The notes beneath the pieces are model-generated. The model did not search any database. It was not told where the DNA came from and saw nothing but the letters and a program-made list of their open reading frames with translations. A DNA stretch of 64,000 nt. It comes from Bilabrum cf. latius. Taxonomy: Eukaryota. This document shows, in pieces, positions 20,415 through 63,790 of the stretch. Each line of letters starts with the position of its first letter. Position 1 is the first letter of the stretch. The stretch lies in contig OZ237741.1 of NCBI GenBank assembly GCA_965178125.1, forward strand, positions 868,001-932,000, read 5' to 3'. The translations under genes were made by a program, and so were the position numbers.

Positions 20415-20550
20415 GTGGAAGTTTCTGCGCTTGTTTTCTTCTTTTCTTTTGAGTGTTTCTTGCTTGTGGGATGTTTGGTTTGGCGCTCTCCAGTGCGGTG
20501 GAGGAGAGCGCTGTTCGCTGAGCTGATCTGGTGTTGTGCTTGGTGCTTGT

Positions 20551-20826
20551 TTGGACGTGCGCCCATTGTGCGCCACGCTTCTGGGTTCCTGATCCGCCCC
20601 GGGGAGGCCTTCGCCCGATGTGCTGCTGACCTGCATGGATGACCGAGAGCCTTTGGCTCACACACGATGCATCGCGATCCACCTAGTGTCGCCCTTTGCA
20701 CTTGCAAGGGGGCACACGGGTGGGGTCGTGATGTGTTTGTGTGCGTGATTCCGTGCATGCAGTGAGCACTTCTAGAGCAAAGCCGCCCGGGGACTGGCAG
20801 GACCAAAGCGGCTACAGAGTCCAAAT
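20551..20826 (+). other. Conserved non-coding block downstream of cadherin copy A (3' UTR / regulatory candidate)
   Basis: Near-identical to the reverse complement of ~40016-40294, although the preceding ~200 nt (C-terminal tail and proximal UTR) do not align; TGA occurs early in all three sense frames. Confidence 0.7.
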
Positions 20827-21217
20827 TGAAGCAGCTTGTACAGGCCACCTGATGAACGATGGGCATCACCAAATGCTGGCCATCGTTCGATGAGGGTGTC
20901 CCATGCCTTGGTGTAGTCTCAGCGTGATTTCGCTTGACCAGTACTTGTTTTCACAATTAGCAATAGTGTCTATATCCGGGCTATGACAGCACTGCACACT
21001 AAAGACTCTGACTTGGCAATGCACCTACTCAACTGGCTAGACTAGCCTAATGAGACTGAATGCACTAGAGCTATGGTGGGTACTCGGGATGCGACAAAAT
21101 TTCCAGCGCAATCAAACCGAAATGATCAGTAAAACACATGGGACGTCCGCTCGGCGGCGCTTGCGGCAGGCGGCCCGGCCCAGATAGGCCTTCGTTGTCA
21201 CCCACTTGCATCAAACC

Positions 21218-24035: not shown

Positions 24036-24182
24036 CGCGATACCCAAAGAAGTATGTAGGGATGCCCAGTACGACGAGAAGAATGCCCAGCGCCAGACCC
24101 GTTTCGATCTGGATATTTACAACAACACGCTACTTTTAACACACACGAACCTACTTCACCCACATTTTTTAGGGTTCTAAGC
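24036..24182. promoter_or_regulatory. Putative bidirectional promoter (CTL / GH3)
   Basis: 147-nt relatively AT-rich gap between divergent inferred start codons 24035(-) and 24183(+). Confidence 0.5.
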
Positions 24183-26848: not shown

Positions 26849-26976
26849 TTCTGTAAAACGGATCTCGCGGACACAAATCTGAAGACCACTGCTTGGCTCG
26901 GGGCTCGGTGGTCCTCCTTGCGTGTTGACTACATTTCTTTATCGAAGTAGATTTATGAAAACCTGCAAACCACGAA

Positions 26977-29900
26977 TCACGATAACTCGCCGCGCAGGAA
27001 AGCCCGCCGTAGCCACACAAACACCCGCCGCTGCCGCGCTCGTCGCGCCAAGCGTTCAATAAACCGATTCTTCATCTTCATCTTCTTCTAATCCTCCAAG
27101 AACGGTCCCGACCAATGGTCCATAACCGCCTGCATCACCCTGCCGCGCTCTGTCGCCTGCGCCTCCACCCGTGCCGCTGCCTGCTGCCTCGACTTCCGCA
27201 GGAACTCCTCCCATTCTGGCAACCGCCGCCTCTCTCGGAAGGTTGGTACCGGCCTACCCAGCCTAACCTCTCTCTTCGCCACGGTAGAGCGCATCCATAG
27301 CTCGAAGCACAGGCCCTTGACCTGGCTTGGCCAAAGGATCCTGCCATCTGGCAACAGGATAGGCTCGCCGCGGCCTCCCCGCCGCGATCGCTCCTTGGAG
27401 TCTGCCGTGTCTTTGCCGTCCTACGCCCCGACAAGACCACCAGAATGCTGCTTGTGCTGCTCAAGCAGACCACTAAACACAAGGTTTCTCTTCTTCATGA
27501 TGCCTCCAAAGGCTGCCCGCAGCGCTGCAACGCCCTTGGAACGCAAGGCGCGTCGGTCGGCAGCCTCTGCCTTGATACAAAGCATGAATCGCTTCTTCAA
27601 GTGCGTAGCAATCTGCCCCAGCGATCGTCGGAGGAGCACTGGGGCGTGTGGGGTGGGAACCTTGTTGGCTATGCCGTCTAGGTGCCTGTCTCTCGCTGCC
27701 GTGCTGTGAGCCTTGATGCCAGGCCTCCATACTCGTCTCGTCAGGCGCCGGCATGCGTCGGAGCTGGCCGTCTCAAGGAGATCATAGAGGGAATGGGTGG
27801 CTGCTGGTGGGATCACAGTGGCACCTGGATGCCTTGGCAGCGTTTGTATTCCGTATGCCCCGCCCGTGGCTGCTCTCACTGCCTGCTCAGCGCATGAAAC
27901 TGCAAGGCTGGCCGCTCGAACGCACGGGGGTGCACCCAAGCCGAGTGCGAGCGGGTGCAAATCGGAGTCTTCGGGCGTTGCTGCCAAGTGTGCTCTCTGC
28001 GACTGCTTGGCTTCCATCAGAAGGTATCCACCCGCCTTGGATATCTCGTCTTCGGCCTCGCTCTTGTCGTTGTCCTCATCCGGCCCTGTCCTCTCGCTTT
28101 CTACTTGGCTATCACCCCCTGCTTGCCCTGACTAGTTCCTAGGCAGCGAGGCACTAGCACCCCCGCCGCGTACTTGATCAAAAAGGTTGTTTGCTATTGT
28201 ACCGTCGGGACTCTCACCAGCGTAGATGTGGCTAGCCGCCGACAACAAGTCTGCAGGTGCCTGTGCTACTCTAACAGCCGCGGAGTGCAGCTTCTCCCTG
28301 ATCCATGAACGCCTCCTTGCAGCGTCCAGTCGCTGCTGCCTAGCCTCGTTCGTCTCGTAGCTCACCACTTTGGCCAGTGCACCTAGCAGACCGCCTGCCC
28401 TACCACGACGCTTGACACCCCACACTCCGCCCCGACCTTGGTCATTATCACTATCACTGCTGCTGCTGTCAGACTCAATGTGTTGTCCAGCCACTACGCT
28501 CGGCTTCGTGCTGAGGCCTAATTCCTTGCCAACTGCCTCGCTCTCGAATCCCACGCTTCTACTATGCAAACTCTCCGGAGCTGCAGCGGCCCGCGACAGC
28601 GAGGGCTCCCCAGCTTGTGTGCCAGGACCCTCCGCACCGGCAGATGGCTCGTTGCCGATACGCTCTGGCATCTACACGTCAGGTTGCCCAGCTTGAGGCT
28701 GTTCCTATCCATGTGCAGCATGTGCAGGCACCTGTTCACTTTCTGGATGACTCGCACGTCCTACTGAAGGCCCTAGGTCAGGTTGGTGCAGATGCAGGCC
28801 AGGCATCCACCACGGGGGCCGATACTTGAACGTGCCTCCCAAGGACGCTCGCCTGCCTCCTCGGGCTGGTCTCGCGGCAATTGCTCCCCGCTACCTTCCT
28901 TGCACCTCGCCGAGCGGCTCATCAAACCACTCGTCAGCGCTTGCGGCCAGCACAAGCCTACATGCTAGCTGCAATCGGATGGCTTGTCGGTCGATAGAGA
29001 TGGCTTTGGCGCCAGCAAGATCACCCTCCATGCTCGTTGCCGACGACCCTTGCTCTGAATCGACCGCATTGCCGTTTAAGCTTCCCAGCAGCTGCTGCTG
29101 GTGCCGCATCGCCACGCGCCTTGCCTCTCTCTGCCTGTCAAGTGCCTCCGACAGTCCCACATTCAGCACCATCCTATACGTCGCCTTTCGCTCCAGGTAG
29201 TAGAACTTCCACCTTGCAAACACTTTCTTGGCCCTCCAGCTGACAAGGAACCGCCGCATAAATGCGTGCTGACTCCACGCCTTGAAGACTGGCCGGGCGA
29301 CGAGCTCGAACCGCCTGTTCGCCACGCGGCGCCAGCGGCGTCTCGCAATGACGCGCCTGGTCCACTCGTGGATTCGTTGGGCGCAACGGCGCCGCCGTGC
29401 TGCGGCCACGTATCTTGCTACTGCCATTTCGTCCTCGTCGTCGTCAGCTAGGGCTGCTCGAGCAGCAGAGCTCAAGTTGACGTGCAGTGGGTGAGAGCTG
29501 GCGCTGGACCGGCGCCCGGTCAATCGCTTGCTGCGGGGCAGCAGGCCGTGCGTTCGAGGGCGATTGCTGCGCCACGTTTCTTCAAGCTTGGGCTGATGCT
29601 GCTGCAGCCGACGGAGCCTAGACGACGGTCCAGCCGTTGATGGTCTCTGCATAGGAGACATTGCCGTGCGAATGAAAGCATTTGGATCATCGTGCGCGTC
29701 CAGAAACGCACCTTCGCTGGCCCTGCTCGCGGCAACAGACTGTGGACGACGCATTCTCGGCGTTTTGGCCACCCCGTTGGCATTGCTACTCCGCCTGACT
29801 GTGGCTGGGCCATGAAGCTGCTGCAGGGATCGAGCTCCTCCAGGTGGGCGCCGCAATGCTTTGGCTGGTGACGTGCTCGGCCTACTTGAACCATCTGCTG

Positions 29901-31062
29901 GAAAACCAGCCTTGTCTAGGACCCCCTTTGACCTGACCTAGCCTCTAGCTGTGACGATGGCCTACCCGGGCCTAGCGTAGGCAAGCCGCCCAATTGTGCT
30001 TCCTTCCTCGGTACCTTTTAGTACGCTTGAATCGCCGTCTAGGCCCATTGATGCCTCGCTCAAGCCAACGATGGCACGAGCTCGCGCAATCGCGTCGCGG
30101 GCGTACCGACTGTCAGACAGCATTGCAGCTGCGTGCTGCTTGGATCCCACTGCGAGCGAGCGGCCCGATTGCACGGCCGACCTAGATCTACCGCGATCTG
30201 GAGCCGGAGCCCACCCAGCGGTACCAATCTCACCGGACCGAAATTGGCTGGGCTGTTCGGCAACAGAATCCAGCCCAAAAATCCCGACGCTGTCGTGGAG
30301 TTCGCCACCGCCCAAACCCCCGTCCGCTCCACCGCCACCATCACTACGGTCGCCGGGACCTCGGTCAAGATCGCCAAGCCTCGAGCGAAGGGAGCCCACC
30401 AGCGGTGGCATGCGCGAAGCAGGCGTGCCCAAGGCTGTTCGCATAGGTGACGATGGTATTTCGTGCCAGTTTTCTAGCGAATCCATGGATGGCTGCCACG
30501 GCCCGGGGCGGGTGCCTGCATTGACGGCGTCTCCACCCATGGCTCCGCTAGAGATAGCCGTCGCAAGCATCACCGAGGGAAGTGAATGGCATGAATCGTT
30601 AGCTGCTGCCATTCGTCGGCGGGTCATACTTATACCAGCCCCCCTAGACAGGGGTCTTCGTGGTGTTCTGCTCGGCGGTGACTGCAAGGCATGCATACCC
30701 TCGACTTCTGCTGCTTGACTAACACGTCCACCTCGCGACATTCGCAGGGAGAACATAACCTTTGAAGTGCCGTATCCGGCAGAAGGCCGGCTCGTAGAAT
30801 CCTTGCGTTCATTTTGTCCCGCTTTTCCGGGACTGGCACGCTATCGGAGATTTCGCCCAACGCTACTGTAATCTTGCCCTGTTGCCTGCCCCCCTGCGTG
30901 TGCCCTACTGTATCTATCGAGACGACCACCGAAAAAGGCAGATAAAACTATGCGTTCTACAGGCTCCAATTCCCGGGGCAAAATGTGCACGCTTGAAGAG
31001 GAAGCCTTGGAGCTGCTGTATTCGTTAGGTTGACTTGTTTCAACCTTTCTCCTCCATGACAT
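26977..31062 (-). CDS. Uncharacterised basic/low-complexity protein with Trp-containing helical repeats (SFI1/IQ-like), ~1,360 aa
   Basis: ORFs 30841-31062, 29962-30756, 28891-29856, 28132-28671, 27421-28017 and 27088-27354 share one frame joined by 9 TAGs with no TAA/TGA until TGA at 26979-26977. Segment CAQRIHEWTRRVIARRRW...PVFKAWSQHAF...KKVFARWKFYY. Confidence 0.65.
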
Positions 31063-31184
31063 GCTAGATACCAGGCCTCAGGATTGATAGTACTATTGAT
31101 TATTGCAATGAAATAGAATGCTGCTCATGAATCGATTCAATTCAAGAGAAATCTAGGGATGTATTTGCAACTGAAGCTCATTTC
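31063..31184. promoter_or_regulatory. Putative bidirectional promoter (uncharacterised gene / P5A ATPase)
   Basis: Short AT-rich gap between divergent genes. Confidence 0.45.
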
Positions 31185-34100
31185 ATGCTTCATCTTCCAA
31201 ATTTACAGATGGTTGCAACCACCCAACTCCACGGCCGACAGCCAGCTGTGACCACAAGGAGAATGTCAGCCGCTCATGGAAGAATATCCGATGCTGCGTC
31301 GAAGGTGATTGAATCACTGTAGCCGCTAGTTCCTGTTTCATGGATGCTGCGCTTGGATCTGCTCCCATTCGCGATCCTGTACCTTGCAAGCGTGGCGGTG
31401 TGGCAGCTGCAATCGGATGAGACTTTGAGTTTCTGCGGCTTTGTTGCCCTTCCCGTCACCGGGCTACTACATGCCCTATTTTTCCTGCTGTAGTACTGGT
31501 TTCCGGGATTCCTGGTATTCATTGGGTGGCGCAAAGTGAGTATTGCAATAAGGAACGTGCGGATTGTCATAGCATTCGCAAGCGCAGAGTAGAGCAGCAG
31601 CTCATTTGTTGAATACCCCCGCAGACATCGTTTGAGAAATGCACTCACTTGATTGTGCGGCCCCTACAGAACAGTGGCGTTGCTAGGATCGTGCCACTGC
31701 ACGCTGGCCCGTTCGAAGTGATGCCCCTCCCAAAGACTGAATCTCCCCTCAAGTCGTTTGACATCGACAGGGCATCACCTGGCTGTCATCCGACCGAGGC
31801 CAAGATCAAGTCGGCTTGCATGCAAGCACCAGCACCTCTTGATGTGGCTCGCGGCGCGCTGCCTACCAAGGGTAGAGAGTACCTGTGGTTCGACTTTCAG
31901 CAAGTGCGGTTCGTGATGGCGAAGCGTGCCGCTGACGACTCCAGCAAGCCAACAGAAACATTCCAATTCTATCCAATCGGATTCCCGGGGGGGCGAGAGC
32001 TGGAGTGGTACTGCAACCAGAAGGGGGTGCAGGGGCGCCAGGCGGCTGGCCCCAGGCGGGCACGGTACGGCAGGAATGAGCTGCCCATGCCTGCACCCAC
32101 CTTCGTTGCCATGTTTCAGGAGCATGCGCTGAGCCCTTTCTTTGTGTTTCAAATCTTCTGCGTGATCCTGTGGATGCTAGACGATTACTGGTACGTCAGT
32201 CTGACCACCCTGGGTATGCTCGTCATGATGGAATCCATCGCTGTGGTGCAGCGCATCGGCAACCACAACCAGCTGCGCTCCATGAGACCGCGACCGGGCA
32301 CATGCCTGGTCTATAGAGAGGGCGAGTGGCAGAGGGCCTCGAGCGCGGCACTGCTGCCCGGAGACATCGTCGCAGTGGGCCGGGGCATCGTCCCGCCGCT
32401 GGCGGCGGATGGGGTCGCGAACGGTGTCTTTGCTGCCGACGACGACGTCTCCATGGAGCGCGAGGAGGAAGAAGCTGAAGCAAAGAGGAAGAAACAAGCC
32501 ATGGGCAACACGAGGACGGGCGTCATCCAGAGGGTCTGGAAGATGCTGACGTCGCCGCGGCCCGAGGCCGACCCGTTGGTGATTCCCGCCGACATCCTCC
32601 TCCTCCGCGGAGGTGTGGTCTCGAACGAGGCAATGCTGACCGGAGAGTCTGTGCCCTAGCGGAAAGAAGGCTGCGCAGACGCCGCAATGGATGCTGTTCG
32701 GGCTGCCGAGGAGGAGCAGGAGGCCGCGCAGGAGGACGGCACAGCCGCCGCTGATGCTGACGGGTTCCTGGATGCCCTCACGAACGACGGCGTGCCAGAC
32801 CTGAACAAATGGGTGCAGCACCATGCCAGACACGTGCTGTTTGCTGGTACCAAGGTGGTGTCCCATTCCAATGCAACAGGTCCGGAGGCTGCGAGCAGCG
32901 ACGGATCTGCAGCGAGCGAGGCCTTCGCAGCAGCGGAAGGGAGCAGTGATCCGACTGGGATCCCACCGCCGCCAGAGGGCGGGGCGATCGGCTATGTTCT
33001 GCGGACTGGATTCGGCACCGCTCAGGGGAGCTTGATGCGTAGCATTCTGTTCTCGCAGGGCAAGGTGTCGTCTGCCTCGTGGGAGGGCCTCGCGTTCATC
33101 GGCTTCCTTCTCATCTTCGCCATCGCATCCAGTTCCTTCGTGCTTGTTCACACGTGGGAGGAAGAGGGCCGTGATAAGTGGAAGCTTATCCTGCACTGTA
33201 TCATGATCATCACGTCAGTCGTGCCTCCCGACTTGCCAGTGCAGCTGTCCATGGCCGTGAACGCTTCCCTGGCCTCCCTCGCGACCAAGCAGGTTTTCTG
33301 CGTGGAGCCATTTCGCATCCCCAAAGCGGGTCTCGTGGATACCTGCTGCTTTGACAAGACAGGAACGCTCACACGGGACCAGCTGCTCGTTCAGGGATTC
33401 GCAAAAGCCGGCGGTGCCAAGGCCTCGGGTGGTCGAGGTGCAGCAGCTTCTTCGTCGTCCAAAAAGGCCGGCAGCGGCGATCACTTCCCTCCTGCCACAG
33501 AGCTCATTCAGGGTGCCAATGCTCTTGACAGGGACGCTCTACTCGTTCTGGCCGGATGCCACTCGCTGTCAGACCAGCAGCAGGCCGGTGACGAGGACGG
33601 CAACGCCAAAGCTCGCAAAGACCCCGACATCGAGGACTCGGACAGTGACGAGGACGAGGACGGCTCTGACCCGACACGGCCATCTGGGGACCCCCTCGAG
33701 GAGGCTGCCCTGCAGACGATCGGGTGGGGCGTCATGGAGTTCCAGGACCTGGGCCTGACGGTCTCTTTCCCCAGCGCTGCAGCTGCCAAGGCCGCGTTCC
33801 AGGCCCAGGCCTCGCTGCGCAAGCGGCAAGCCAAGGCCGGGTCAGATGCCGCTGCTGCCGCAAACCCAGGCAGTTCACTGGCAGCCGCCAAGGCCGGATC
33901 GAAGGCGGCGAAGCCCCAGGCGCTCGGAGACCCTCGCGACCGGGCCGTGGTGCTGCGACGGTGGGCTTTCAGCTCGGCCTCCAGACGGATGACCACCGTT
34001 GTTGCTGTCACCAAGGGAGCTCAGGGGGCGGAATTTGGTGCCGGTGCTGTGTCTGGCAGCTCTACCCGACCGGAACCAGGGTCGCTTGCCGGGCTTCGCG

Positions 34101-36709
34101 TGCTTGTGAAGGGTGCCCCGGAGGCAGTCCGAGGGCTCCTCGGCGCCGTGCCCAAGGGATTCGACGAGGCGGCGCGTGCCCTGGCGCATGCCGGCTACAG
34201 GGTCATTGCCCTTGCCTGGAGGAACATCGATGCCAGGGATCTGCCGAGCGGCAAGGGCGGCGGCAAGTAGGCCGGTGGCGGTTGGGGCAGGCTGCAAGCC
34301 GTGGCGAAGCAGGCAAAGCACCTGCCTCGCAGCGTAGCAGAGACTGGGCTCATCTCGGCGGGATTCCTCGTCCTTGATTCTCCGCTCAAGGCCGATACAA
34401 CTGCGGTGATCACGCACCTTCGAGAGGCCAGCATGCGCTGCATCATGATCACCGGTGATGCTGCCCTCACAGCTGTGGCGGTGTCGAAGAAGTGCGGCAT
34501 CATCGGAATGCCAAAGGCGGCTGGTCCTGCCAGCGCCGCGGATCTCAGCCTGAGCAACGTCGATGCGTTCAGCTCAGCTGCGAAAGACGCAGCAACGGTG
34601 GTCTGGATCTTGGAAGAGAAAAAGGGCAATGAGAGCGATGACGGCGAGAGCAAGTCGCCTGCATGGGCTTCTGGGTCTCATTGGATGGTTGTCAAGGGCG
34701 GCAAGCGGAGCGCTCCAACCGTGGAATACAAGCCGTTCACCCCCGACCCTGCCACATGGGGGGGAAAGGGCTCCTCGCAGGAGCACACGGTACTGTGCTG
34801 CACCGGTGCCGGGCTAGAGCCGTTGCTGCAAGCAGCTCGCGAGGAAATGCGAGCTGTGAAGGCCAAGGCCGCTGCAGAGGCTGAGCGAGCCGGGAAGTCC
34901 GCTGCCGCGATCAGTGCTGCCGGTGACGACGTGGCGGCGGAGGAGCGTGGGCCCGCATCGAAGACGCTCGCTGAGATCGCCCGCCGGGCACGCGTGTATG
35001 CAAGGGTCTCTCCGCCGCAAAAAGAGAGCATTGTGGCTGCACTGAATGCAGATGGCAGGCATACGTTGTATTGTGGCGACGGAACCAACGACGTCGGCGC
35101 GTTGAAGCAAGCTGCAATCGGAATTAGCATTGTCTCAGACCCAGACGCTGAAGAGACGTTGGAGCGGGTCATGGCCGATCGAAAGGAGCTGCAAAGGGCG
35201 TCGCAGGCACTGCGAAAGACTGGCGTGTTCTCTGGAGATGCAGCGACGACCGCAAGCGTCGCGTCAATTGCGCAGAAGCTCGGATAGGAATCAAAGGAAA
35301 TCGCGAGCAACCAGAAGACGGCTAGAGGTCGCAAAAAGCCCAAGGGCAAGGGCGGCAAGAAGAAGGGCGCAGCGGACGATGCCTCTGGGGATCCGATGGC
35401 ACTCGCCAGGAAGATTGCCGCCGAGAAGAATCCAATCTTGCAGAAGAAGATTGCCTAGGACGAGCTGCAGAAGACGTGGAAACAGATGCAGCAGGAGATG
35501 AGCGGAGCGATGGGCGGGGTGCGATTCGGAGACGCCTCAATTGCTGCTCCATTCACGTCAAAGAACCCCTCCATTGACGTCGCAAGCAGGCTGCTCCGGC
35601 AAGGACGCGGAACCCTTATGACCACTCAGCAAATGTTTAGGATCCTTGGCGTAATTTCGTTGGTGGTGAGCTATCAGCTGTCTGTGCTCTACATGTATGG
35701 CGTGAAGACGGGCGACTGGCAGGGAAGCATCGTTTCTATGGCCACGGCTGGCTTCTTCATGTCCATCTCGTTCTCGACGCCGCTGGAGAAGCTCGCGCCT
35801 CAACGCCCTCACAAGTCCGTGTTCCATGGCGCGCTGGTCAGCAGCGTGCTGTTCCAGTTCGTGGTGCATGTCGCCGCGCTAGCCATCGTCTCCCAGTGGT
35901 GCCTGCCGTACATCAAGATGGTACCCAACGGAACGTACGACGCGCGTGATGAGGCGCTTCGGCGCAACATGACATCCAGCGGTGACATTGACGCGCTCGG
36001 GGCCGGGGAGGTAGAGTCTGCTGGCCTCCTGTCTTCGCTCGAAGTAGGCGCAGAGGGAGACATGGAGGGCGCTGGGCTCGGCTTGGGCCTGGGCTTGGGT
36101 GGTGAGGCAGCTGATTTTGACCTCGAGTCGGATGTGGACGAGCTGGCATCTGCGCAGCTGTTTAGCAAGGTGGCTGGCTCTGGCGGTGGCAGTGGGGACG
36201 GTGCGCAGGTTGGTGGGTTGATGGGTTGGCTGATCGACATGTCAGGCGATGATGCCCCCGAGGTCAACGAGGATGATTTCCTCTCCGCTTATGAGAAGAG
36301 TCCCAGCCTCAAGAAGGCGGCCGAAGCTGGAAGGCGGGGGGAGGTGGTCGAGGTCGAGATGGACGGGCACTTTGTTCCGAATGTGATGAACACTGCCATG
36401 TTCCTGGTTAGCACAGCCCAGCAGGCCTGCACCTTTGCAGTCAACTACAGCGGAAGGCCTTTCCTCCCGTCCCTGTTTGAGTACCGGCGCCTCGTAATGC
36501 TTACAATTGCATTGCTAGGTGGCGTGGTGGCATGCGCGACGGGGGCAGTCCCAGAGCTGAATGAGTACCTGCAGCTGGTTGTGCTGCCCACGGAGGGGCT
36601 TCGCACCGGCGTTGTGACGGTGGTGCTCGTGGACGTTGCCTTGTGCTTTGGATTCGAGATGTGGACCAGGCGTGCCCTTGGACACGTGAGACCTCCGAGA
36701 GACGACTAA
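31185..36709 (+). CDS. ATP13A1: P5A-type ATPase (ATP13A1/Spf1 ER transmembrane-helix dislocase family)
   Basis: Exon 1 from ATG 31185 (alternatives 31209, 31263) to 31535, intron 31536-31624, exon 2 31625-36709. Motifs PFFVFQIFCVILWMLDDYWY, LTGESVP(Q)RKE, VPPDLP, CCFDKTGTLT, VKGAPE, MITGD, GDGTNDVGALK, GDASIAAPFTSK, GRPFLPSL. 6 in-frame TAGs; ends TAA. Confidence 0.93.
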
Positions 36710-36822
36710 CGCCGCGGTGGAACGTTGTCGCAATCCGGCGCACTCATTTAGCTGATATTTGATTGAAACAAGAAACTCCAGATGAAATTTGAAATACATT
36801 CTGTTTGCGCAAACCTGATGTT

Positions 36823-38652
36823 TTACTGCCTAGCGCCTGCTCGTCGGCGTGGCTTGAGGCTGTCATCGCTCACACTAGCCTGGTAATATTGGGCCAGCCG
36901 ATGAAACCAGGACGAAGTACCGACTGCGCCAGCATCTGGCAACTCCACTGACACGATTTCGTTGTCCTAGTCGACTGCCCCGTCGTCCACTGCACCGACG
37001 ACCTTCTTGTTCGCTAGTATGCTGCGCCCATCCTAGACCGCTTTCACCGCCCTGTCAAGCCTCTCTAACCTCTGCACCTCTCGCCAATTCCTATGCTTGC
37101 CAGCGTAAAACGCCGCTGCTCCCACAGTCTTGGGAGCAGGCTTTACCCCGATTGCAGCCGCGAGCTCAGCCAACATGGCTGCGGAGCCTTGCGCGCGATG
37201 GCCCTCCGACACCCGGAGGTACAAATCATTCAGAGCATGCAGCGAGCGGGTACCGGGCTTGACGCTGTACGAGCGCATAAGTCGTAGCGTGCTGCACGCC
37301 CCGTCAACGTCTCCCCTTGCGCACCAACTCTGCAGCAAGCCCACGAACCACGTCTCCGACAACGAGCCTTCGGAAGATCCGAAGGGCGACCCACTCGTGT
37401 CGCTGGTATGGTACCGACAAACGGATTCGAGGACTCTGTGCGCTGTACCGAGCTCCCCGTTGATGTATAGAGCCCTGACAAGCTCGCTGGCCAGGTTGGC
37501 ACCGTGTCGCGCGGCCGCTAGCGACCTAACCATCGACTCGCACTCTTGCCCCGATAGCAACGGTCCTGCCAGTTGCCCGACCACTCGGCTCGCTGCAGAT
37601 ACTTTGCTGCTGTAGTTTGCACTTACTTCTGGCCCTTCCCCATCCCGCCCGTCTTGTACATCAGCTGGGCCACTCGCCGCCGCGGCAGATCCCGCATCGC
37701 TGGACCCATTGACGGCAGCTTCCGCCGCCCAAGCGCGCAGGAAGTCAACAGCTGCTGACGCACGCAGGGACTATCGCACTCGCATCGTCATTCGACTTGA
37801 CGCAGCAATCTTGGTCGTCCCAAAATGCCCGCCGGACGACGCTGGCTCGATGTCTTCTTCCACCCCATGAGCCTGCGACGGTCTACTAGCAGGCACTGGC
37901 ATGACAGGCATCTCGCCGCCTTTCCCTGTCGCCACACTTCGAAGATTCGCTACATAGATGAGTTCTTTAGCAGGGCTTCCGGTCCAGACGCCGACCTGAC
38001 TAGCGACGGCTCGCGTTGGTGGGGCGCCAGCAAGCAGACGCACGATCGAGGCGGCTAGCCTGCTGTCAATTTGCATGCCTGCATCGCGACTCATATCAAT
38101 TACCCGGTGAGCAGTGTCAACTACAACATCAACTTGGGAGTTTGAATGCTTGACGCCCAAAGCATCTGACAACAAGGCAAGATCAGCCTGCTCGAACGGT
38201 CGTCCGAACCGGTTGTGTCTCCAGTCCAACAGCAGCAACGCTGCATCGGCGTGGCGCCAGCGAATTGCAGCGAGAACTGCAGCTCGAAACTGTGACAGAG
38301 GCCTTCTGGCTATCGATTCTGCATCGCCGCCACTTGTCCACTCTTTCAGCGCGCTGTCCACTGTTGCAATCGATCTCGGCGAGATTGATGCTGCCCGCGA
38401 TGACGCCCCCAAAATGCAAGCTGCCAAGCTCTAAGGGGTGATGTAGTTTGGTTGGATTCTAGATGTTGCGTACAAGCTCAACTGACTGGAGCGAGCAGTT
38501 CTATCAGCCAACAGGGCAGCCTCGTCTGCCGGTGCCCCACGGGCAACTTTGGAACAACCGCCGTCCAAAGACAGCACGGGCCTCCAACCAGCTCGTAAAG
38601 ACTAGCGGAAACGAGCACAAGCAACGGAAGCTCTGTCGGATGCTTGCCGCAT
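36823..38652 (-). CDS. PPR-like repeat protein, possibly mitochondrion-targeted, ~609 aa
   Basis: ORFs 37771-38427 and 37033-37584 are in frame and extend through 5 TAGs from ATG 38652 to TAA 36825-36823. Arg-rich N-terminus MRQASDRASVACARFR; PPR-like helix pair TWFVGLLQSWCARGDVDGACSTLRLMRSYSVKPGTRSLHAL. Confidence 0.68.
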
Positions 38653-38792
38653 CCCACAGAGAAATGCAAATTCTGGCTGGCATCAATTGATGAGGAGAAC
38701 CAATAATTCCAAGCCCCAGATTGGCACAGAAACAAGCATTAAGAAGTACAATTGCCCCAGGGTGCTATACGCGTATAACTTTGTTCATTAGT
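38653..38792. promoter_or_regulatory. Putative bidirectional promoter (PPR-like / PRCC-like)
   Basis: 140-nt relatively AT-rich gap between divergent ATGs 38652(-) and 38793(+). Confidence 0.5.
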
Positions 38793-39770
38793 ATGGCATC
38801 TAGGCTGACCCTATATGAATCATCGTCAGATGAAGACGAGGAAACAGAGCCAGAGCCTCCCCGATCTGAGGAAATCCCGCTGGGCAAGAAAAGGCCACGT
38901 TCTGAAACAAAAGTAGCTACTGCAGGGGCGCAATTATAGAGTACTAGCGATCGACCCGCCAAGTCTGCCAAAGTGGTAGAACTTGTCGAAGGGGAGGAGC
39001 AGGCACCGGTCCGAGAAACAAGTGCCAGATCACAAAAACAACAGATTGGAGACCATCATAGCGGAGGAAAGCAAGTTGAGAGTAAAATACCAGTCCCTTA
39101 TCAGCGAAGCGTAGCTACAATTTCCACCGCAGCTCAGCTGGTGACTGCGTCATAGCCGTTTGCGCCTGGTCGGTATGTCGGCTCGACCTCCAGCCAGCCT
39201 GCGCAGTACCCCCAACCCCAAGGCTACGGCCAGTCCCAGACAAGTATTGATGCGGTATAGCGCACTGTAGGTCGCGATGCTGAGGCAGCACATGCAGCGG
39301 CAGCCTCTCTCGGCATCCCGCCAGCAGTGGCAGCGGGGTTAGACCCCAAGGCACTTCGGGACATGATGAAGGCGAGCGGAGGTGGGCGACGGAAGGGTCG
39401 ATTGCGGGCAGACTTGACATAGCACCATGGTGGAGGCAGTGCGTCCGTGGCGACCCTTGTCAGCGGAGTGAAGGTTCACTCGTTGAGAGCTCGTGATGTC
39501 CACGGGTCGTGGAGTGCCGAGGATGTCGCGGCGGTGGGGTCAGCTCCTGCACCCCAACGCACGGTTCTGTCGACGGCATGGGACGCTTCATCGGGTAAGA
39601 TGACAACCATTGAGGGCGCAGGTGTTGGTGTCGGTCAGCGCAAGCGACAGAACCAGTTGACGGTGATGGCGTCTCGGGCGATGCAGCTTGAGACAGAAAG
39701 GATCGGGCCAACGGCGGAGGAAAATGCCAGGGCGGCCAAGAAAGCTTCCAAGAAGAAATATGGATTCTAA
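38793..39770 (+). CDS. PRCC: PRCC-like protein (mitotic checkpoint / spliceosome-associated), ~325 aa
   Basis: Single frame with 4 TAGs. N-terminal LTLYESSSDEDEE and C-terminal RKRQNQLTVMASRAMQLE...AKKASKKKYGF-stop resemble the PRCC family termini; ends TAA directly after KYGF. Confidence 0.78.
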
Positions 39771-40015
39771 TCGTTTTTCTGCTTCTGCCGAATCACTGCA
39801 TGCTATAACCGACAAGTTCAAAAGAGAATCGGTGTATAAGAAAGCAAAAATCGACAATGGCCACATACGGCCATAACAGAACTTAAATCAGATGGCATTC
39901 CATGCTGCTACACTCTTGGCCGCTAGAGCACCAGTTCAAGACCAGGAGACGCTAAATACGCGACTACAGTCTCTACTATTTGATGCCCACGGCAGCTCAA
40001 GATGAGCAATCGACC

Positions 40016-40294
40016 TTTAATTGGGCTCTATAGTCGCTTTGGTCCTGCCAGTCCCCGGGCGGCTTTGCTCTAGAAGTGCTCGCTGCATGCACGGAATCAC
40101 GCACACAAACACGCCGCGACGCCACTCGTGTGCCCCCTTGCAAGTGCAAAGGGCGACACTAGGTGGATCGCGATGCATCGTGTGTGAGCCAAAGGCTCTC
40201 GGTCATCCATGCAGGTCAGCAGCACATCGGGCGAAGGCCTCCCCGGGGCGGATCAGGAACCCAGAAGCGTGGCGCACAATGGGCGCACGTCCAA
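40016..40294 (-). other. Conserved non-coding block downstream of cadherin copy B
   Basis: Reverse-complement match to 20551-20826. Confidence 0.7.
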
Positions 40295-40407
40295 TCCAGT
40301 CGACTGCACAAAGCAGCATTGCATGCCGCAGCCACACCAGGGCACAGCCCCAGCAGACCACTTTCCTCCGTTCTACCGAGTCACCAAAGCTCAGCGCAGC
40401 ACAAAGC

Positions 40408-43400
40408 TCACTTTCCATCAGAGCTCGAGGTGCTGGTCTTGGCGAAAGTCATGGGGTTCTGCGTCTGGTCCGAGCCAGAGGCGGTCCGGCTCAGTAGCCC
40501 GCGCCGAGACCCACCGGCCCGGCCAGCACGCAGGGAGTTGCGTCCAGCACGCCGGATGCCCACAGTGCCAGCTGCGCCTGGCGACGCCGCACCCTCCGCC
40601 TTCGTGGGGCCGAAGGCATTCCGAGACCGGCCAGCCGATCCAGTGCGACCGGCACGACGCACTCGGCGACCAGCACCCTCACTGGCTACTCCAGTGGACA
40701 GGCTGTCGCCCATTCCGGCCATGCCTTCGGTCTTCCGCAGGCGCTGCACCTCCGCCTTGAGCTCGCGCACGTGGTTCCGCACGAACTGCCATGTCGCGGC
40801 GTCCGGCACGTCAGTGGCCAGGAGGGCCTCATCGGCCTTGGCACCCGTGTCGGCCCCCTTGGAGGACCCGGAGCCGAGGAACATCGGGTTCACGCCCACG
40901 CCGGACGCAGACTCCGCGTTGCCGCCGGACATCTCCAGTCCACCGGCGCCGCCGCTGTCCCCGGCAGCCGAGCTGCCGCCGGTTTCGAGGTCCCTGAGCC
41001 GCTGGAGCTCCTTCATGGCGCGCTGGGACATGGGGCCGGCCTTGCCCTTGCCAGCCTTGCCACCCTTGCCCTGTCCGGCCTTGCTCAGCGCGTCCTTGCG
41101 CCGCTGCTCGTTCAGAGACGTGTACACCTCCAGGCCGATGGACACAGCGCAGAAGATCAGCCCGCCGAAGATCAGCATCATGGTCACCACCGTCAGCACA
41201 TCGCGCTCGATAGCGCGACTCGACTGCACCCCGATCAACTCGTCGTCGAAGCGGCCCGACTGGAAGCACACGCCAGACAGCGCGATCAGTACAGTCAGCG
41301 CCAGCTGTGTGCTCTCCAGAGTGTTGTACGACACAGCGCACTGGGTGGCGGCCGCAGTCACAGACGCCATCAGCGAGTCGTCGCTGGCACTGCCGCTGAT
41401 GCCCTACCCGAAGCGGCGGCGGTCCCAGGCCTTGGCACGGTCCTGGAACACGCGCTGCAGCCTGCCCTTGATGGTCACGTGCAGCACATCGCCGTCCTCG
41501 CAGCGCTGCTCATGGTCGCGGATGACATCGGCCATGTCCTCGCGAGACATGTACGGCATCACGTACACCTGGGCTGTGTAGCTCAGGAACACCACCAGCA
41601 GCAGGGTGGCCAGCTGGTACGCAGCATTGTTCACGAACAGCAGGCTCACCACAGCCACGCCGAACTTGCGGGCCAGGATAGTCAGGATCCAGTACGGGGC
41701 CACCACAGGACGGAAGAAATAGTACAGCTTGTGCAGACTCTTGCGCGTGTCGAAGGCATGCGGGTTGGTAGCACGGTCCTTGCCAAGACCGCGCGCCCTC
41801 AGCAGCTGATCTTCCACGATCAGGTCACGGCTCCTGTACAGCAGCACGGCCACAGTTACTGGGTATGCCACAGTGTACACTGCAAAAGCAATGATGGCAA
41901 ACGGAAGCAGCGTCATCTGCACGCCGCCTGGCTTGCCGCACTCCTCGAACACGACCTGAAGGTATAGCTTGCCGTCAGGTGGGGTGGTGGGACTGCAGTT
42001 CCACACGTCCAGGATGGTGCGTGTGAGCTGCAGGTACAGGATGTACAGCGAGCCAGAGCCCATCATGAGCAGGATAGGATAGTGGTTGCAGCGCTTGCTC
42101 TTGGGGCGGCCCAGCACCACCAGCTTGTACAGGTACAGAGACACGTGACACAGCCCGAACATTGCCAAAGCCGCGAGGGGCAGCAGCATGATGGCAGTCC
42201 ACTGCGCGATGTAGCCCACGTTAGGTACGATGCACTGAGGGGCCACGATGTCGATGTTGAGGTTGAAGGCCGACAGGATGCGGAAGATGTTCAGCACGAT
42301 CGGAGGCCACGGCACCTTGGATCGAGCAAGGATGGCAAGCACCTGGGCATAGTCCAGACTGAGACTCAGGGGGGCAATCTGGATGTCAGCCTTGGCCACG
42401 AAGTACGCACCGATACCCATGAACAGCACCGCCACCACAAACAGGATCAGGATCACCCACTGGTTGTCGGGGCACTCCTCGCATACGCCCAGCGTAGACC
42501 GGAAATGGCCCTCGGAGCACTCGGCGCACCGCGGACCTGTGTACGCGGCGGAGCACTCGTTGTTGCCCAGACACGCGTCCTGTGGCTGGCACGGCAAGAA
42601 GTGGAAGCAGTAGGATCGCAGCTCCTGGGACGCCTCCCCACGGCGCTCCTCTGGGCATGCCAGCTCGTCCCGCTTGTTGGGGTCAGCTGCAGAGATGTTG
42701 GGCCGCATGTCGAAGAACCCAGCCAGCGACACGGGGTCCACCGGTCCACCAGGGCAGTCGGCACCCACGGGACAATCCAGGCACCACTCGCCGTTGTCAC
42801 CATAGTAGTCGTTATCGCACTCGGCAGACAGCCGCAGAGACAGCTCGTCGTTGTACCTGGTCTCTTGCAGCGCCACGCTCACGGAGATGTTCTTGCGGCC
42901 AGCGCGGTCCTCCATGGTCTCGCACTCCAGGAATGGCTCAGGCGGGACAGCGGCGGAGTCAAGCGTCCACCTGCCGCCGCCATTGGTGCAGTTAAGACCT
43001 CCGATGCTCACTAAGAAACCGTCACCGGGCAGTGGCGGGGTCTCGCCGAGGTTGGTGCCAAAAATCAGCACGGTGTCGCCGGCTGCGCTGGGCTGGTTGG
43101 GACTGACAAAGAAGATCTCGGGGGCATCGTAGCTGACCAACACGGGGTTTGACAGGCGCCCGTCCACTGCCACCACCAGTCGCAGGTCCCGGCCATAGCC
43201 CTGGGGCACCCCAGCCGGGATCTCCGAATGCGAGTGGAAGCGCGCCCCCGAGGTGTCGAGGGCATATCCACTGGGCTCGGCCACGTCTGGTCGAAGGCTC
43301 AGGGGGATGCGGGCGGTGGGCACGCCGCGAGGACGGCCCATCTCGTCGGTGGCCTGCAGCGGCGGAGAGGCGAAGAACTCGTCCTGCGTCACCTCCACGG

Positions 43401-46400
43401 CCCCGTCGATGCGAGGAGGCAGCAGTCGCATCTCAGTGCGCGCCGTGGCCGCAATTCCGAACGAGTGGCCCAGCACGCGCATGGCTGCCCTGTCCTCAGG
43501 TGCGATGCTCTCGGCGAACGTGCCTCGAGTTGGCACCTCGGCTGGCATGGCTACAGACGCGATGTACGGGGCATCGTACTCGAAGTCGCTGGCACCAGCA
43601 CTGCGCTGGCCCATCACCACCACATCGATCATCAGACCGTCGCCCTGGCCCTCGGGAAGCACGAAGGAGATCTGGTCATGGTCCTGCGAAAGCACAGGCA
43701 CCACGGCACCGAACCACGCAGGACCAGTTCCGGTCTGCGCGCGGCGAGCGGCAGCCTCACCAGCATCGGGGGTCGGCAGCACGCGCACAACGGCGCCCAT
43801 CGTACCGCAATCCGCGCACGACACATTCACCACCACTCCGCCTTCAGTCGGGAAAAGAGGCACAGACGGGTCCCGAGAGCCGCCCACCAGCGACATGGCA
43901 TCGTTTTCGGAGGCAAAGCCAAGCACCCGAGGGGCGTTATACTAGAAGGCTGCCTCCGCCGCGGCAGCGTCGTTGGACTGCCCACCAGCTGTCACGCGCC
44001 AGCCCCACCCGGCACCCTGACCGGCGGGCACGGTGCAAGACACGCTTGTATGTGTCCAGCCCACAGTCATGCACTCCAGCGGTGCAGGTACGGCTGGCTC
44101 CACAGGGGTAGGCAGCGGGTTGCCGTCACCATCCAAGGGGGCTGGCAGCGCGCGAGGCACAGACGGGTTCCACACGAGATGCACGGCGGGTGCCTGCACG
44201 CCAAAGTTCGATCCTGCCAGCGTCACGTTGACCATGCCGCGAGAAGGCACATCCAGCTCACCACCACCAACAAGGGCAGCTGACGCCACGGAAGGAGCCA
44301 TATATCCGATCTGGAAGGAATCCGATAGCCGGCCATTGTCCAAAAAGGCGTTACGGGCGGCGCCCTGTCCCTCCCTCACATCTAGCACCACCTCCTCGTG
44401 GTCCCAAGACACCACGTCCACATTCACGCCATCAACCACCACGCCGGCATCCCCAGGCACAGCGCCAAAGTTCATGCCAGTGATCGTGGTCCGGCCACCA
44501 GAGGTGGGCAGCAGCGAGGGACTCACAGATGACACCGACGGCGCAGCGTAGTTCCAGTCGAAGTCAGGAAGCGATGCCACGCCGCCTCGGAGCACCGTCA
44601 CACCGATGCCTGCACCCTGTCCTGCAGGTGCTGTGCACGTCAGCTCGTACGTTGAGGCGGCGGTGCACGGGGCGGCATCAATGCACCGCACTGACACGTT
44701 CGTGCACGGGCTGCCGTCCACGTCCACAGACATCACGCCAGCGGTTGTGGACCAAGCCGTGCCCCGCATGGTGACCACAGTGCCGCCACGGGTGGCCAAG
44801 TCGGGCCTGACCTCGCCATCGCCTCGCTCTGCGATGGACGGTGACACTGACTCGAACAACACGCCCGCTGTCTCGCGGCCCGTGCCGTCCTGCACCCATA
44901 CGCATCCCCGCTCCACATTGGACACGATGCAGTTCACCTGCTCGTGACCCGACACGATCTCGCACTCAGAATGCGCAGCCACCTCCCAGCGGGCCAGCAG
45001 CAGCACGCCCTGACTGGTGGTTGGACACGTGGGGGGATCGAAGCCCACCTGAGGCGGGGCCTCGCCCACCACGAACACGGGGCTGGGACCGAAGTTGGTG
45101 CCTGTTGCCGTGATGCGGTAGTCGGTCGGGCGATCGATCGGATCGAACAACTCGGCATGCAACCGGGTCAATGCAGGGCTGTCGTAGTCGAATGCCACCA
45201 CGTTCGACCGCAACCAGGACGAGGGGCCCTGTCCCGGGTCCACCAGTGCCTGCACGCCCAGGTCGGAGCCCTCTCCCTCGGGCAGCAGGAACGTGACGCG
45301 GTGCGCAGGGGCTGTCGTGGTGCCGGCAGACTGCAGCACCACAGCGCGGGTCGAGTCAACATGCCCAGTGGTGCCGTCGGGGAACCCAAACAGCAGACGC
45401 AGTGAAGACTGAGACGAGCTGCCCGACTCATCGCCAGCATCGCCAGATCGGATGCGAGAGTCCTGAAGACCGAGGTTGGTCCCATCCACAGTCACGGCAA
45501 CGAGGCCCTTCGTGGGACCGTTCGTGGGCTGCACGTTTGTCAGCACAGGAGGCGCGTAAGACAGGGTGGCTGTGGGGTTCAGGGCAGAGGACTGTCCGCG
45601 CACAGTGACCCGGAACACATGGCCCCGGCCCACACCAGCTGCCGTGCGACAGCGGATCCGCTCGTGAGACAGCACGGTGCAGTTCCTGGCGTCATACTCT
45701 TGCCCCGATGCGCCATACCGTACCGAGTCCAGGTACACGCGCCCGAACGGGGCCTGCGCCATGGGAGGTCCGAAGTTCTCGCCCGTGAGCTCAAACACCT
45801 GCCCGCCATCTGTCCATGCGTCAGTCACCACGAGGCCATTGGAGTCACCAGTGGCAGGATCAGTCACAGCAGACACGCTCGGTGCGGCGTACGCCGTGGT
45901 GGGCTGCCTCGACTCCAGCCCATCCACAATGACACGCCATTTCAGGCCAGCACCGGCACCTGGCTGCTTGGCGCACGTGATCTCCTGGTGCGCCACGGTC
46001 ACGTTGCAGCTGGCAGTGGCATCGAACTCGAGTCCCCTGCGGTCCATCTCCTCCAAGTCAACGTCTCGCTCCTCCAGCCCGTACCTGACCTCATCCAGGA
46101 AGGCCTTGCCCACGGGCCCGAAGTGCTCGCCCCTGATCACAACCACGTCCCCGCCTGGTGTGCTGGCGTCCACAGCGCCCTCGCCCTCGTACAGAGACAC
46201 CACGGGCGCGGCATAGCTCACGGTCGTCACCTCGACTTCATCCACAAGGCCATCGGCATCCTCGCTGGCCTCAGCAGCAGCGGGCATAGTGGACTCAGAC
46301 ATCTGACCGCCGACCGCGGCTCGCACGGTGTGGTTCGCGCCAGTGCCGACCGACGTGACGCATGTGATCTGCGAATGCGCGAGCGATACACGGCAAGACG

Positions 46401-49400
46401 CAGCCAGGAACCGAGCCGAGTTGAGTCCGCCGTATGTCACGCTTGGCATGATGGACACGCCGCCCGCCATCCAGCTGCTGTCACCGTGAGGACCCAGATC
46501 TGCGTAGTCCTGGGTGGTCCAGCCGGTAGGCCCGAAGTCAGTGCCGCTCACTAGCAGCTCCAGTCCACCGCGAGTGGAGCCTGCTACCGCACCGGGGCCA
46601 CCCACGCTTGTCACTGTAGGGACAGCGTACGACGTACGAAGGGCACCAGATGTGGGAGTCGATTGCAGGCCGCCAGCGTACACGATCCACGAGTGCATCT
46701 TACCGAGACCCTCTGGCAGTGTGCAGTTCACCATGTCGTGATCACGCACCACCTCGCATCCCACCGCCATGAATCGGGTCGAGTTGGCACCACCGAAAGT
46801 GGCCCGCACGTCGAGGCCAGCCAGCACGATGGGGTGGCTCTGGGCCAGCGCAGGCCCGAAGCTGGATCCAATCAGAGAGATGATGGGCCCACCAGCTGTA
46901 GGCAGCGAGTCCAGACCAACGGAGCTCGAGTCATCCGCGCCAACCATGATTGAGGTGACGGTCGGGGTCTCGTACGACACCGAGCTGCCGAAGCCCACGG
47001 ATATCTGGCCACCAACTGTAGCAACGAACTCCAGAGGCCCGCCCACACCAGCAACAGGGTGGCACGTGATCTGCACGTGCGCATTCGTCACACGGCAGTC
47101 GCGAGCCGCGAATGCATTCTCTGCCAGATCGGGCCCGTAGCTCAGCTGCACCAGCGTGCCCACCGGCCCGAAGTTGGCGCCCTCCACTACGATGGACACG
47201 GTGTCATCAGCCGCGCCGCGAGTTGACAGGATGTTGCCTGTCCCGCCCACGCCTGCCACGCTCGTGATCGACGGTGCCGAGTAAGACGTGGTAGCAGAGG
47301 ACTCGGCCGATGATGCCGAGTGATCGCGCGCGTTGACCGAGTCAAGCAGCCGAAGTACCCACACGTGCCCAGCGCCCACACCCTCAACCACCCTGCAGGC
47401 CACCTCAAAGCCGGCCTGCTCAAAGCGACACTCAGACGCAGTGTATCGAGTGGGGTCAGAGGCAGGCCCATAGGAAGCCGCCAGCTGGTACGTGCTCAGG
47501 TCGAGGCTCTCGGCATCCACGCGAGCCTGCACTGGAGAGAAGCCAGTCCCCTGAAGCACAACCCAGTCGCCGCCCACCGTGCCGTACTGCACGCTGCCGC
47601 CCTCGGCACCGATGCCACCGCCATCAGCCGTCGCATTGTCGCCCGCACCAGGCTGCACAAAGCCACCGTCCTCACCACCGATGCCTTCGCCCATCACTGT
47701 GCCATCAGGCCCGATGGCAGCGTCCGTGTCTTCCATGTACCTGAACCCAGAGATGAACGCATCGTCCACGTCCTGCACGCGCACCGTGACAGACGCATCC
47801 GTGCGGAGACCGCCTCCATCCGTCACGATCACACGCACCTCATACGAGGCCCGCATCTCCCAGTCCAGCTGCTGGCCCGGCCTCAGACGAAGGCTGCCAG
47901 ACGATCGATCCATTTCGAACAGCTCGTACACCATGGCGTCCTCCACGGCCTGCGGGCTGGGAGCGGTGTTATTCCCAGTGGTGCCCTGGTCGCCGGCATC
48001 CGGGGCTGTCGAGTTGCCGTCCACCTCAACCCCATCGTCCTCGTCACCGTCACCCTGGTCAGGAGAGGAGCTAGCGTTCTGCGCAACCAGCAAACTGGGA
48101 TCGCCGGCCAGCAGCACCTCGAAACTGCGCCATTCCTCCCGAGAGTCGGGGTCGGAGATGGACACAGTGCCCACAGCAGCGCCGGCCGCAGCGTCCTCTG
48201 CCACAGCCAGGACCTGGTCGGCAGGCACAGACGGGTAATCGTTCGAGTCGATCAGCGCGATGAAGACGTCGGCTGTGTCTGAGGCACCGCGCCCATCCGT
48301 AGCCACGATGGTGCACCGGAAGCTGGGGCTCAGCTCAAAGTCGAGCACACCTGCTTGGCCAACACCGAGAGACCCGCTAGACCCATCGCCCAAGATGGTC
48401 ACTGCACTGCCGCACGCGCGAGTGCTCTGTGATGTGGGTGACGCGCCAGTGGGGGCGCGGATCGTGTACCGAACCGTGCCGTTGTCAGCCACATCGTCCT
48501 CGCGCGCCATCAGCACAGCCACAGCGCCTTGTCCCGGCGTGGCCTCCTCGGCGGCATCAGCCATGCGGACAGCAGTGCCCTCCGCCGCGCCCTCCTCGAT
48601 GGTCACGTCGAACCGCGCGGAAGATGGGATCCGCCGGGCCGTGTCGAAGTAGGGCGCCTCAGCCACCTCATTCACATTGATCACGATGGTGGTAGCGCTG
48701 CTGAGCGGAGTAGTGCTGTGCGAGTCAGTGGCTGTCAGCACGGCCTCAAACCGTCTTGTGCCATGTTCGTAGTCGAGCAGCCCGGAGCCGGCTCCACCGG
48801 AACCAGATGCCACCTGGATGATGGCTGTGCCGTCTGCGCCGCTGCTGATATCACCGCCAGTTGCGCTCTGCACCACGAACGGGAACGGGGCGTTGGCAGA
48901 TGCACCAGTCGGTGCCAAGGAGAACGAGACTGTCTGTCCATCATTGGCATCCGAAGCATCGATGCGGCCCACAAGCGTAGCATCCTCGGCGTTCTCATCC
49001 ACAGCAATGGTGAACGATGTAGCACTGAACGTCGGCGCTAGGTTGGTATCAGTCAGTTGCACAAGCACAGTGCCGGTACCAGTCAGGCCCTCCTTGTCCG
49101 TCACCTGGACACTCAGGCTGAACTGGTTGGCTCCTGCTACGCCTGTGGACGAGAAGGTGAAGCCGTCCTTGGCCGCGTTAGTGGCAGTCACAAACAGCTG
49201 GCCAGTACCCTGCTCCACGCTGAAGATACCGTCACTGTCTCCTGCCGTGATCGAGAAGTTGAACCGCTCCGTGAACGTGCTGCTCTGCAGGTCCTCGTCC
49301 GCGACGAATGTCGCGAGGGGGCGCCCAATCGTGCCGGCTCGAGAGGCTGCTGCGAAGAAGTTGCCGCTCGAGGCATCCAGAGACGGGGCCTCATTCACAT

Positions 49401-63629: not shown

Positions 63630-63790
63630 TGAGAGGGTAGGGAGGCGGTGTTTACATCCAGGATACACCTCGCTGCGTCCGTCCTGTCCTGCCGCGCGGG
63701 ACACGCCGGTCGCGCTTCACGTCTCATATGGTAGTTTGATTTATATGCCAAGCTGTTTGTTCATCATTTTCGGATCTGCACAGGTGCTTG

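Follow-up and report, generated by a model that had tools for sequence, protein, structure and literature searches.

In a stretch of 64,000 nucleotides of eukaryotic nuclear DNA from Bilabrum cf. latius (contig OZ237741.1 of assembly GCA_965178125.1, positions 868,001 to 932,000; hereafter the window, with positions counted from its first letter), it is very probable that UAG is a regular glutamine codon and that UAA and UGA are the sole terminators, as in the Iotanema-type code of NCBI table 15. The initial annotation had proposed that UAA and UAG are decoupled in this DNA, with TAA still a stop and TAG a sense codon, and this proposal is supported by the window itself, by a related metagenomic locus (L001) and by RNA contigs. 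The features of table 15 are seen here, namely UAG in frame within certain coding sequence, UAG standing for glutamine, UAA not used as sense, and UAA or UGA at the C-termini.

The guanine plus cytosine (GC) content is ∼60% overall and 54–65% per 4-kb stretch. Under the standard code the long genes are broken up into pieces of 250–1850 codons, and once TAG is read as sense, open frames of 4137, 4121, 2802, 1895, 1698 and 1366 codons appear. Our gene set comprised ten genes (g1 to g10), whose families were assigned by Pfam and homologue searches, and codons were counted over 13 coding segments of these genes. The 18,846 codons hold 86 TAG in frame and neither TAA nor TGA, and when g9 was set aside for its 97% identity to g2, 79 TAG were counted in 14,541 codons. 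TAG is present in all ten genes, including the insides of the P5A, GH3, choline-transporter-like and cadherin/TIG domains, and accounts for 12.2% of the Gln-type codons (CAG 68.3%, CAA 19.5%). At the gene ends we found TGA seven times, TAA three times and TAG never. These counts bear out the earlier figures of ∼90 in-frame TAG without any in-frame TAA in the coding segments of the window, and the reported gene ends also hold: the three TAA ends (36707–36709 and 39768–39770 on the forward strand, 36823–36825 on the reverse) were given with the right coordinates, and the seven TGA ends lie at 5688–5690, 20412–20414, 26846–26848 and 63627–63629 on the forward strand and at 21218–21220, 26977–26979 and 40408–40410 on the reverse. 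The genes are as follows.

3–5693, forward strand: g1, TmcB-TPR/PAS protein, truncated at its 5′ end by the start of the window; 18 in-frame TAG; stops at a tandem TGA-TGA, 5688–5693
8001–20414, forward strand: g2, main exon of a giant cadherin/TIG/Sushi membrane protein (Pfam and paralogue comparison); 8 in-frame TAG; stop TGA 20412–20414
21218–23990, reverse strand: g3, choline-transporter-like, four exons (spliced RNA contigs); 1 TAG, in exon 3; stop TGA 21218–21220
23187–23314, 23520–23639 and 23738–23871, reverse strand: introns of g3, with joints in RNA-like contigs; the spliced frame is open
24184–26848, forward strand: g4, GH3 glycosidase; 4 TAG, in exon 2; stop TGA 26846–26848
24261–24358, forward strand: intron of g4, between a short signal-peptide exon and exon 2 (24359–26848); the spliced frame is open
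26977–31062, reverse strand: g5, orphan of 1361 amino acids; 9 in-frame TAG; stop TGA 26977–26979
31266–36709, forward strand: g6, P5A-type ATPase (exon 1 31266–31535 and intron 31536–31624, both seen in RNA contigs; exon 2 31625–36709); 6 in-frame TAG; stop TAA 36707–36709
36823–38652, reverse strand: g7, orphan of 609 amino acids; 5 in-frame TAG; stop TAA 36823–36825
38793–39770, forward strand: g8, orphan of 325 amino acids ending ...KKKYGF; 4 in-frame TAG; stop TAA 39768–39770
40408–52773, reverse strand: g9, inverted paralogue of g2; 6 in-frame TAG; stop TGA 40408–40410
55446–63632, forward strand: g10, orphan of 2727 amino acids; 23 in-frame TAG; tandem stop TGA-TGA at 63627–63632

The assignment of g6 is based on Pfam E1-E2_ATPase and Hydrolase matches and on homologues with E-values down to 2.6e-239. 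Spliceosomal introns of 89–134 nt occur in the window. Because the genome has introns, the end of an open reading frame (ORF) is not always the end of a gene, a point that the initial annotation had missed, and all ten ends were therefore checked singly. For example, the TGA at 7998–8000 and the TAA at 52787–52789, where the ORFs upstream of the giant paralogues seem to stop, lie within the splice donors GTGAGT and GTAAGA.

UAG as a glutamine codon

The paralogues g2 and g9 could be aligned over 4113 codons with 97.3% amino acid identity. In the 12 columns that contain TAG, its partner is CAG in ten and TAG in two, with no other partner; for comparison, CAG/CAA was found four times and CAG/GAG three times. 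Since ten of the 12 TAG columns vary and only 319 of the 4113 codons differ, the TAG codons look young and freely exchanged with CAG. We also observed that TAG/CAG is the commonest Gln-codon difference of this pair (ten, against four for CAG/CAA).

Relatives from other sources point the same way. P0123, a 98% identical protein predicted by its own source, has Q at the position of the TAG of g3. A metagenome scan with the P5A protein gave 18 loci, among which L001 is the only close relative. The P5A orthologue in L001 is represented by its 5′ half and is 77.7% identical to the window gene over 705 aligned codons; in-frame TAG is frequent there, and the P5A frame of 800 codons contains neither TAA nor TGA. 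The well-aligned pairs of L001 and the window at TAG positions are TAG/CAG (four), TAG/CAA (one), TAG/TAG (one) and TAG/AAG (one), so that a Gln codon stands in five of the six variable pairs; where the alignment is poor, the partners (CCT, GCG and others) carry no information. Because L001 covers only the 5′ half of the gene, it gives no further stop codon.

Three TAG codons could be placed opposite glutamine in homologues:

32657–32659, forward strand: TAG of the P5A ATPase in the motif GESVP-TAG-RKE; CAG in L001 and Q in the four closest homologues
24425–24427, forward strand: TAG of the GH3 glycosidase in the N-terminal MT(L/M)EE..Q(L) motif; opposite the conserved Q of PDB 7zb3/8c7f (phmmer alignment)
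24557–24559, forward strand: a further GH3 TAG at a conserved position, where 7zb3, 8c7f and 5xxl have Q

The TAG at 24425–24427 is moreover covered by an RNA contig (X6 record 16) that shows no other letter there. Judged from these sequence comparisons taken together, glutamine is the only consistent reading of TAG.

A glutamine codon might still terminate in some places, and it is possible, though improbable, that UAG is ambiguous and context-dependent, being read as glutamine inside genes and, towards the 3′ ends of some genes, as a stop, next to the ordinary stops UAA and UGA; Condylostoma and the karyorelict ciliates are models for context-dependent stops. If TAG made up 20–25% of stops, as in a standard GC-rich genome, its absence from ten ends would have a probability of ∼0.06–0.11, and the low-scoring tail of g1 with its two TAGs 12 nt apart also counts in its favour. 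However, a TAG stop is needed by no gene end. The tails from the last TAG to the stop codon measure 36–459 codons in the ten genes and are coding-like either in score or in the pattern of GC at the three codon positions (GC1/2/3), and in g1 this pattern (∼0.7/0.4/0.75, with GC3 of 0.72–0.80) is kept up to TGA-TGA and collapses after it. In Iotanema, according to PMC5304391, 126 genes were examined, of which seven were truncated, and none of the 119 transcripts that could be scored ended in UAG. Occasional UAG stops elsewhere in the genome are conceivable, because only ten gene ends could be considered. As to the g1 tail itself, the two in-frame TAGs lie at 5500–5514 and are followed by a rare-codon tail that ends in a Cys-rich CCGCCRCRSRCC motif.

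UAA as a terminator

If TAA were a sense codon and stood to TAG as CAA stands to CAG (ratio 0.286), 22.6 in-frame TAA would be expected in the coding segments; the ratios GAA:GAG, AAA:AAG and TTA:TTG (0.11) give 23.2, 18.6 and 8.7, respectively. None was seen, for which the Poisson probability ranges from 1.5e-10 to 1.6e-4. We also scored every stop-type triplet on both strands by codon-usage log-odds over 50 codons on each side, taking scores above 0.15 as coding-like. Both flanks were coding-like for 0 of 302 TAA, 40 of 859 TAG and 2 of 1796 TGA; the upper bound for in-frame TAA is about 0.2 per 1000 codons, a value that holds for the window only.

The three TAA-ended genes were then considered by what lies on either side of the stop. 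With its end at TAA, the P5A ATPase has 39 amino acids after a conserved Pro. The corresponding tail is 34–41 amino acids in 12 of the 13 chosen clade homologues carrying that Pro, and its median is 40 over the homologues with the Pro at that column (71 of 120); read-through to the next stop would make it 59, which is 20 residues more. Past the TAA of g6 there are 19 codons to the next TGA with a GC3 of 0.53 (0.71 in the gene), and past that of g8 there are 71 codons with a GC3 of 0.38 (0.51 in the gene), and in both cases the codon-position pattern of GC disappears. Read-through of g7 would give 338 codons antisense to the P5A coding region. P0121, a 96%-identical protein fragment of a relative, ends at the same KYGF as g8. 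For the UGA ends, P0123 finishes at the same residue as the UGA-terminated g3.

Table 6, in which both UAA and UAG (UAR) mean glutamine, is the code of ciliates, Dasycladales and Hexamita. A code of this type, as reported for Amoeboaphelidium, could be imagined for the window if TAA were merely rare by GC pressure and TGA were the sole stop, and we consider this very unlikely. The composition of the window lends it something, because GC is 54–65%, A-ending codons are disfavoured (CAA:CAG 0.29, TTA:TTG 0.11) and TAA triplets are scarce (302 against 859 TAG on both strands). Yet even the lowest of the A:G ratios predicts 8.7 in-frame TAA where none is found, no TAA has coding sequence on both flanks, and three TAA stand exactly at the ends of coding signal. 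Moreover, the TAA of the P5A gene fits the C-terminus of its clade, and the read-through of g7 would run antisense through P5A. In-frame UAA as glutamine, which marks a UAR code, was not found among the coding segments, and three genes end at TAA.

That TAG is present in the messages was seen in public runs placed on 20401–40400. Three of these (X5, X6 and X8) behave like RNA and are not on record as such. Spliced joints (GT..AG) that the DNA run X3 lacks occur in all three, except that the GH3 joint is missing from X5, and a loose end with poly(A) lies at 26955, 107 nt past the TGA of the GH3 gene. No other letter was found at the TAGs in X5 record 13 (P5A), X5 record 12 (g5, 26936–31146) and X6 record 16 (GH3), and X3 agrees with the window over 19,284 bases. 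Since spliced RNA contigs retain TAG, editing does not account for it. An artefact of RNA editing, assembly errors or pseudogene decay, with the standard code in use, has practically no likelihood, because the TAGs are unchanged in spliced RNA contigs of two studies (three runs), with the X3 DNA concordant, because TAG but never TAA or TGA occurs in all ten genes, and because L001, from another source, also has in-frame TAG.

Several points weigh against the table 15 assignment. The sample is small, with ten gene ends, three TAA stops and ∼14.5 thousand non-redundant codons. Counting no in-frame TAA involves some circularity, since TAA and TGA served to bound the ORFs, a difficulty that is eased by the further checks above. 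A comparison of the TAA stop with homologues was possible for P5A only; g7 and g8 are orphans, and their TAA stops rest on loss of coding signal only. The extent of RNA does not discriminate in the case of P5A, as its contig continues for 72 nt after the TAA and passes the next in-frame TGA. The 58-codon tail of g1 has a codon score of −0.14, the lowest within the gene. As for the meaning of UAG, the columns of the TAG codons are mostly variable at the level of distant homologues: the P5A column at 32657–32659 holds L in 65 and Q in 36 of 120 homologues, the third TAG of the GH3 gene stands opposite I or M, L001 has AAG opposite one window TAG, and a fragment of 68% identity, P0122, shows E at one of the window's TAG positions. 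Finally, no transfer RNA (tRNA) gene was found within the window or L001 (Rfam gave 0 matches on the window), and no eRF1 gene was found within the window; the mechanism described below is one that we infer.

Proposed mechanism, known codes and origin

Following the proposal of Panek et al. (2017, PMC5304391), UAG would be read by a tRNA-Gln(CUA), which a single mutation separates from tRNA-Gln(CUG). Such a tRNA would be unable to read UAA, because C34 pairs only with G. On the side of termination, eRF1 would have lost or weakened its recognition of the third-position G of UAG and would still bind UAA and UGA; a loss of UAG recognition by eRF1, as put forward in the initial annotation, is a reasonable assumption. 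CAG and TAG could then interconvert freely by C/T transitions, and exchanges of this kind are seen between the paralogues g2 and g9.

UAA and UAG nearly always change their meaning together, and the few nuclear exceptions named in PMC5304391 and PMC11687900 are Iotanema, the rhizarian exLh, Scotinosphaera, Protocruzia and some phyllopharyngeans. The statement in the initial annotation that reassignment of UAG alone is rare, with Iotanema (Gln) and a rhizarian (Leu) as examples, agrees with these two sources and with PMC9161772. The kind of code described here is therefore known and rare (Iotanema, 2017), and it is the lineage that seems new for it.

The closest counterpart in codon meanings is Iotanema spirale (Fornicata), for which Panek et al. 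(2017, PMC5304391) described UAG as glutamine and termination at UAA and UGA. There as here, UAG is a minority Gln codon (∼8% in Iotanema, 12% in the window), no UAG terminators were seen, and UAA and UGA never occur in frame. The two differ in their preferred stops: in the Iotanema data of the same source, 104 of 119 transcripts end in UAA and 15 in UGA, whereas the window has TGA and TAA at 7:3 and ∼60% GC. For Iotanema the paper further gives a T32G change in the GTS motif of eRF1 and a postulated tRNA-Gln(CUA) (PMC5304391).

Reassignment of UAG alone to glutamine is also on record for Protocruzia tuzeti and two phyllopharyngean lineages, with evidence for repeated independent origins (PMC11687900). 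These ciliates are like the window in that UAG is glutamine and UAA is kept as a stop. The window, a stretch of at least 64 kb with 60% GC, several genes, some of them convergent, and spliceosomal introns, differs from what is usual for the macronuclear DNA of ciliates. Amoeboaphelidium protococcarum (Aphelida) resembles the present organism as a non-ciliate of algal cultures with UAG as glutamine, but it is reported to use both TAG and TAA for glutamine (PMC5304391, PMC6299283 and PMC11687900), whereas TAA is a stop in the window, and the Amoeboaphelidium genomes have 40.5% and 39.9% GC (Table 1 of PMC10608142) compared with ∼60% here. An identity of the organism with Amoeboaphelidium was rejected on this GC content and on the P5A tree below, where the window stands apart from Fungi. 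Other cases give UAG another meaning, namely leucine in the rhizarian exLh and in a ciliate and serine in Scotinosphaera, with UAA kept in exLh and Scotinosphaera, according to PMC5304391 and PMC11687900. In exLh and Scotinosphaera UAG and UAA are decoupled as they are in the window, where the TAG/CAG exchanges instead point to glutamine. Our literature searches, with subscription papers and supplements outside their reach, found no published UAG = Gln code from a GC-rich non-ciliate or from a stramenopile.

Placement of the organism is suggested by a single-gene FastTree of P5A (57 sequences), built without metamonads, ciliates, plants and animals. In this tree the window falls in a clade with local support of 99, inside a larger clade with support of 100, on the oomycete side and apart from Fungi and Amoebozoa, which gives a hint of affinity at the level of one gene sequence. 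Besides near-identical records, the closest homologues reach at most 48% identity for P5A and at most 38% for the choline-transporter-like protein. Concerning the source of the DNA, the same stretch was found at 0.44–0.99 of sampled words in runs under four organism labels from four studies (X1–X8), and small shares of it occur in runs labelled as algae and as protist metagenomes. Perhaps the organism often accompanies or contaminates other cultures, or it has been filed under more than one name.

An independent origin of the code in this lineage is plausible. The fuller claim, that this is an unreported independent origin of a UAG-only → Gln code in a GC-rich eukaryote with a compact genome outside the ciliates, fornicates and aphelids, we put forward tentatively, as somewhat less likely to be right than wrong. 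Each added independent case narrows which changes of eRF1 and tRNA suffice to split UAA from UAG, and the present one is distinct in its ∼60% GC and its preference for UGA, with genome and RNA data that seem already public. Were the independent origin true, it would be the first GC-rich, UGA-preferring case, with at least one environmental relative sharing the code, and the organism would be a convenient system for studying how eRF1 drops UAG yet keeps UAA and UGA, and whether UAG can be captured despite a GC pressure that ought to have made UAG stops frequent. There is also a practical side to the assignment of table 15. Annotation with the standard code goes wrong by fragmenting every long gene, and only short fragments of g8 are in the protein libraries; annotation with table 6 goes wrong by running three TAA-ended genes through their stops.

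Orphan genes and gene arrangement

Both orphans with a TAA stop had been given family labels that the searches did not support. For g8, described as 'PRCC-like', Pfam gave no PRCC match even at E ≤ 10, and a word-based search was empty. When g8 was compared by phmmer with all 1.84 billion representatives, only two fragments came back, both from its own lineage, and no PRCC relative, and a metagenome scan gave 336 pattern matches with 0 confirmed. The gene does end in KYGF, as had been noted, and the further statement that this is the terminal motif of a family found no support from any tool. At the C-terminus of g8 (39588–39767) there is a sub-threshold Pfam match to F_actin_bund_C (E 0.0068–0.052; 17 bits against a cut-off of 27), a signal that is probably compositional, coming from a helix rich in Lys and Ala. 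The label 'PPR-like' for g7 fared no better, as no Pfam family matched at E ≤ 0.001 or at the looser limit of E ≤ 1.

In L001, at ∼2100–2400, an extra in-frame insert free of stops lies between FVFQ and IFCV; it is intron-like and is absent from the P5A gene of the window. Because the insert looks like an intron lacking in the window gene, intron positions would differ between these relatives.

At two of the seven TGA-ended genes (5688–5693 and 63627–63632) the stop is a tandem in-frame TGATGA. This could be chance or a guard against read-through of UGA, the number being too small to tell.

The central 20 kb of the window is flanked by an inverted duplication (6810–20345 on the forward strand and 40447–53969 on the reverse), whose arms share 12.2 kb at 97.4% identity and a further 1 kb at 86%. 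Each arm carries one giant cadherin/TIG/Sushi gene that has one or more 5′ introns. The g2 and g9 proteins differ at the C-terminus in the final ∼15 residues only, and both stop at TGA.

Convergent genes are tightly packed in the window, and their 3′ ends touch or overlap (26936–26979, 36709–36825 and 39770–39831). The poly(A) of the GH3 gene at 26955 lies beyond the stop of g5 on the opposite strand (26977–26979), and the RNA contig of g5 in turn extends to 26936. In the other two cases, the P5A contig ends at 36781, 42 nt from the stop of g7, and the g9 contig ends at 39831, 61 nt from the stop of g8.

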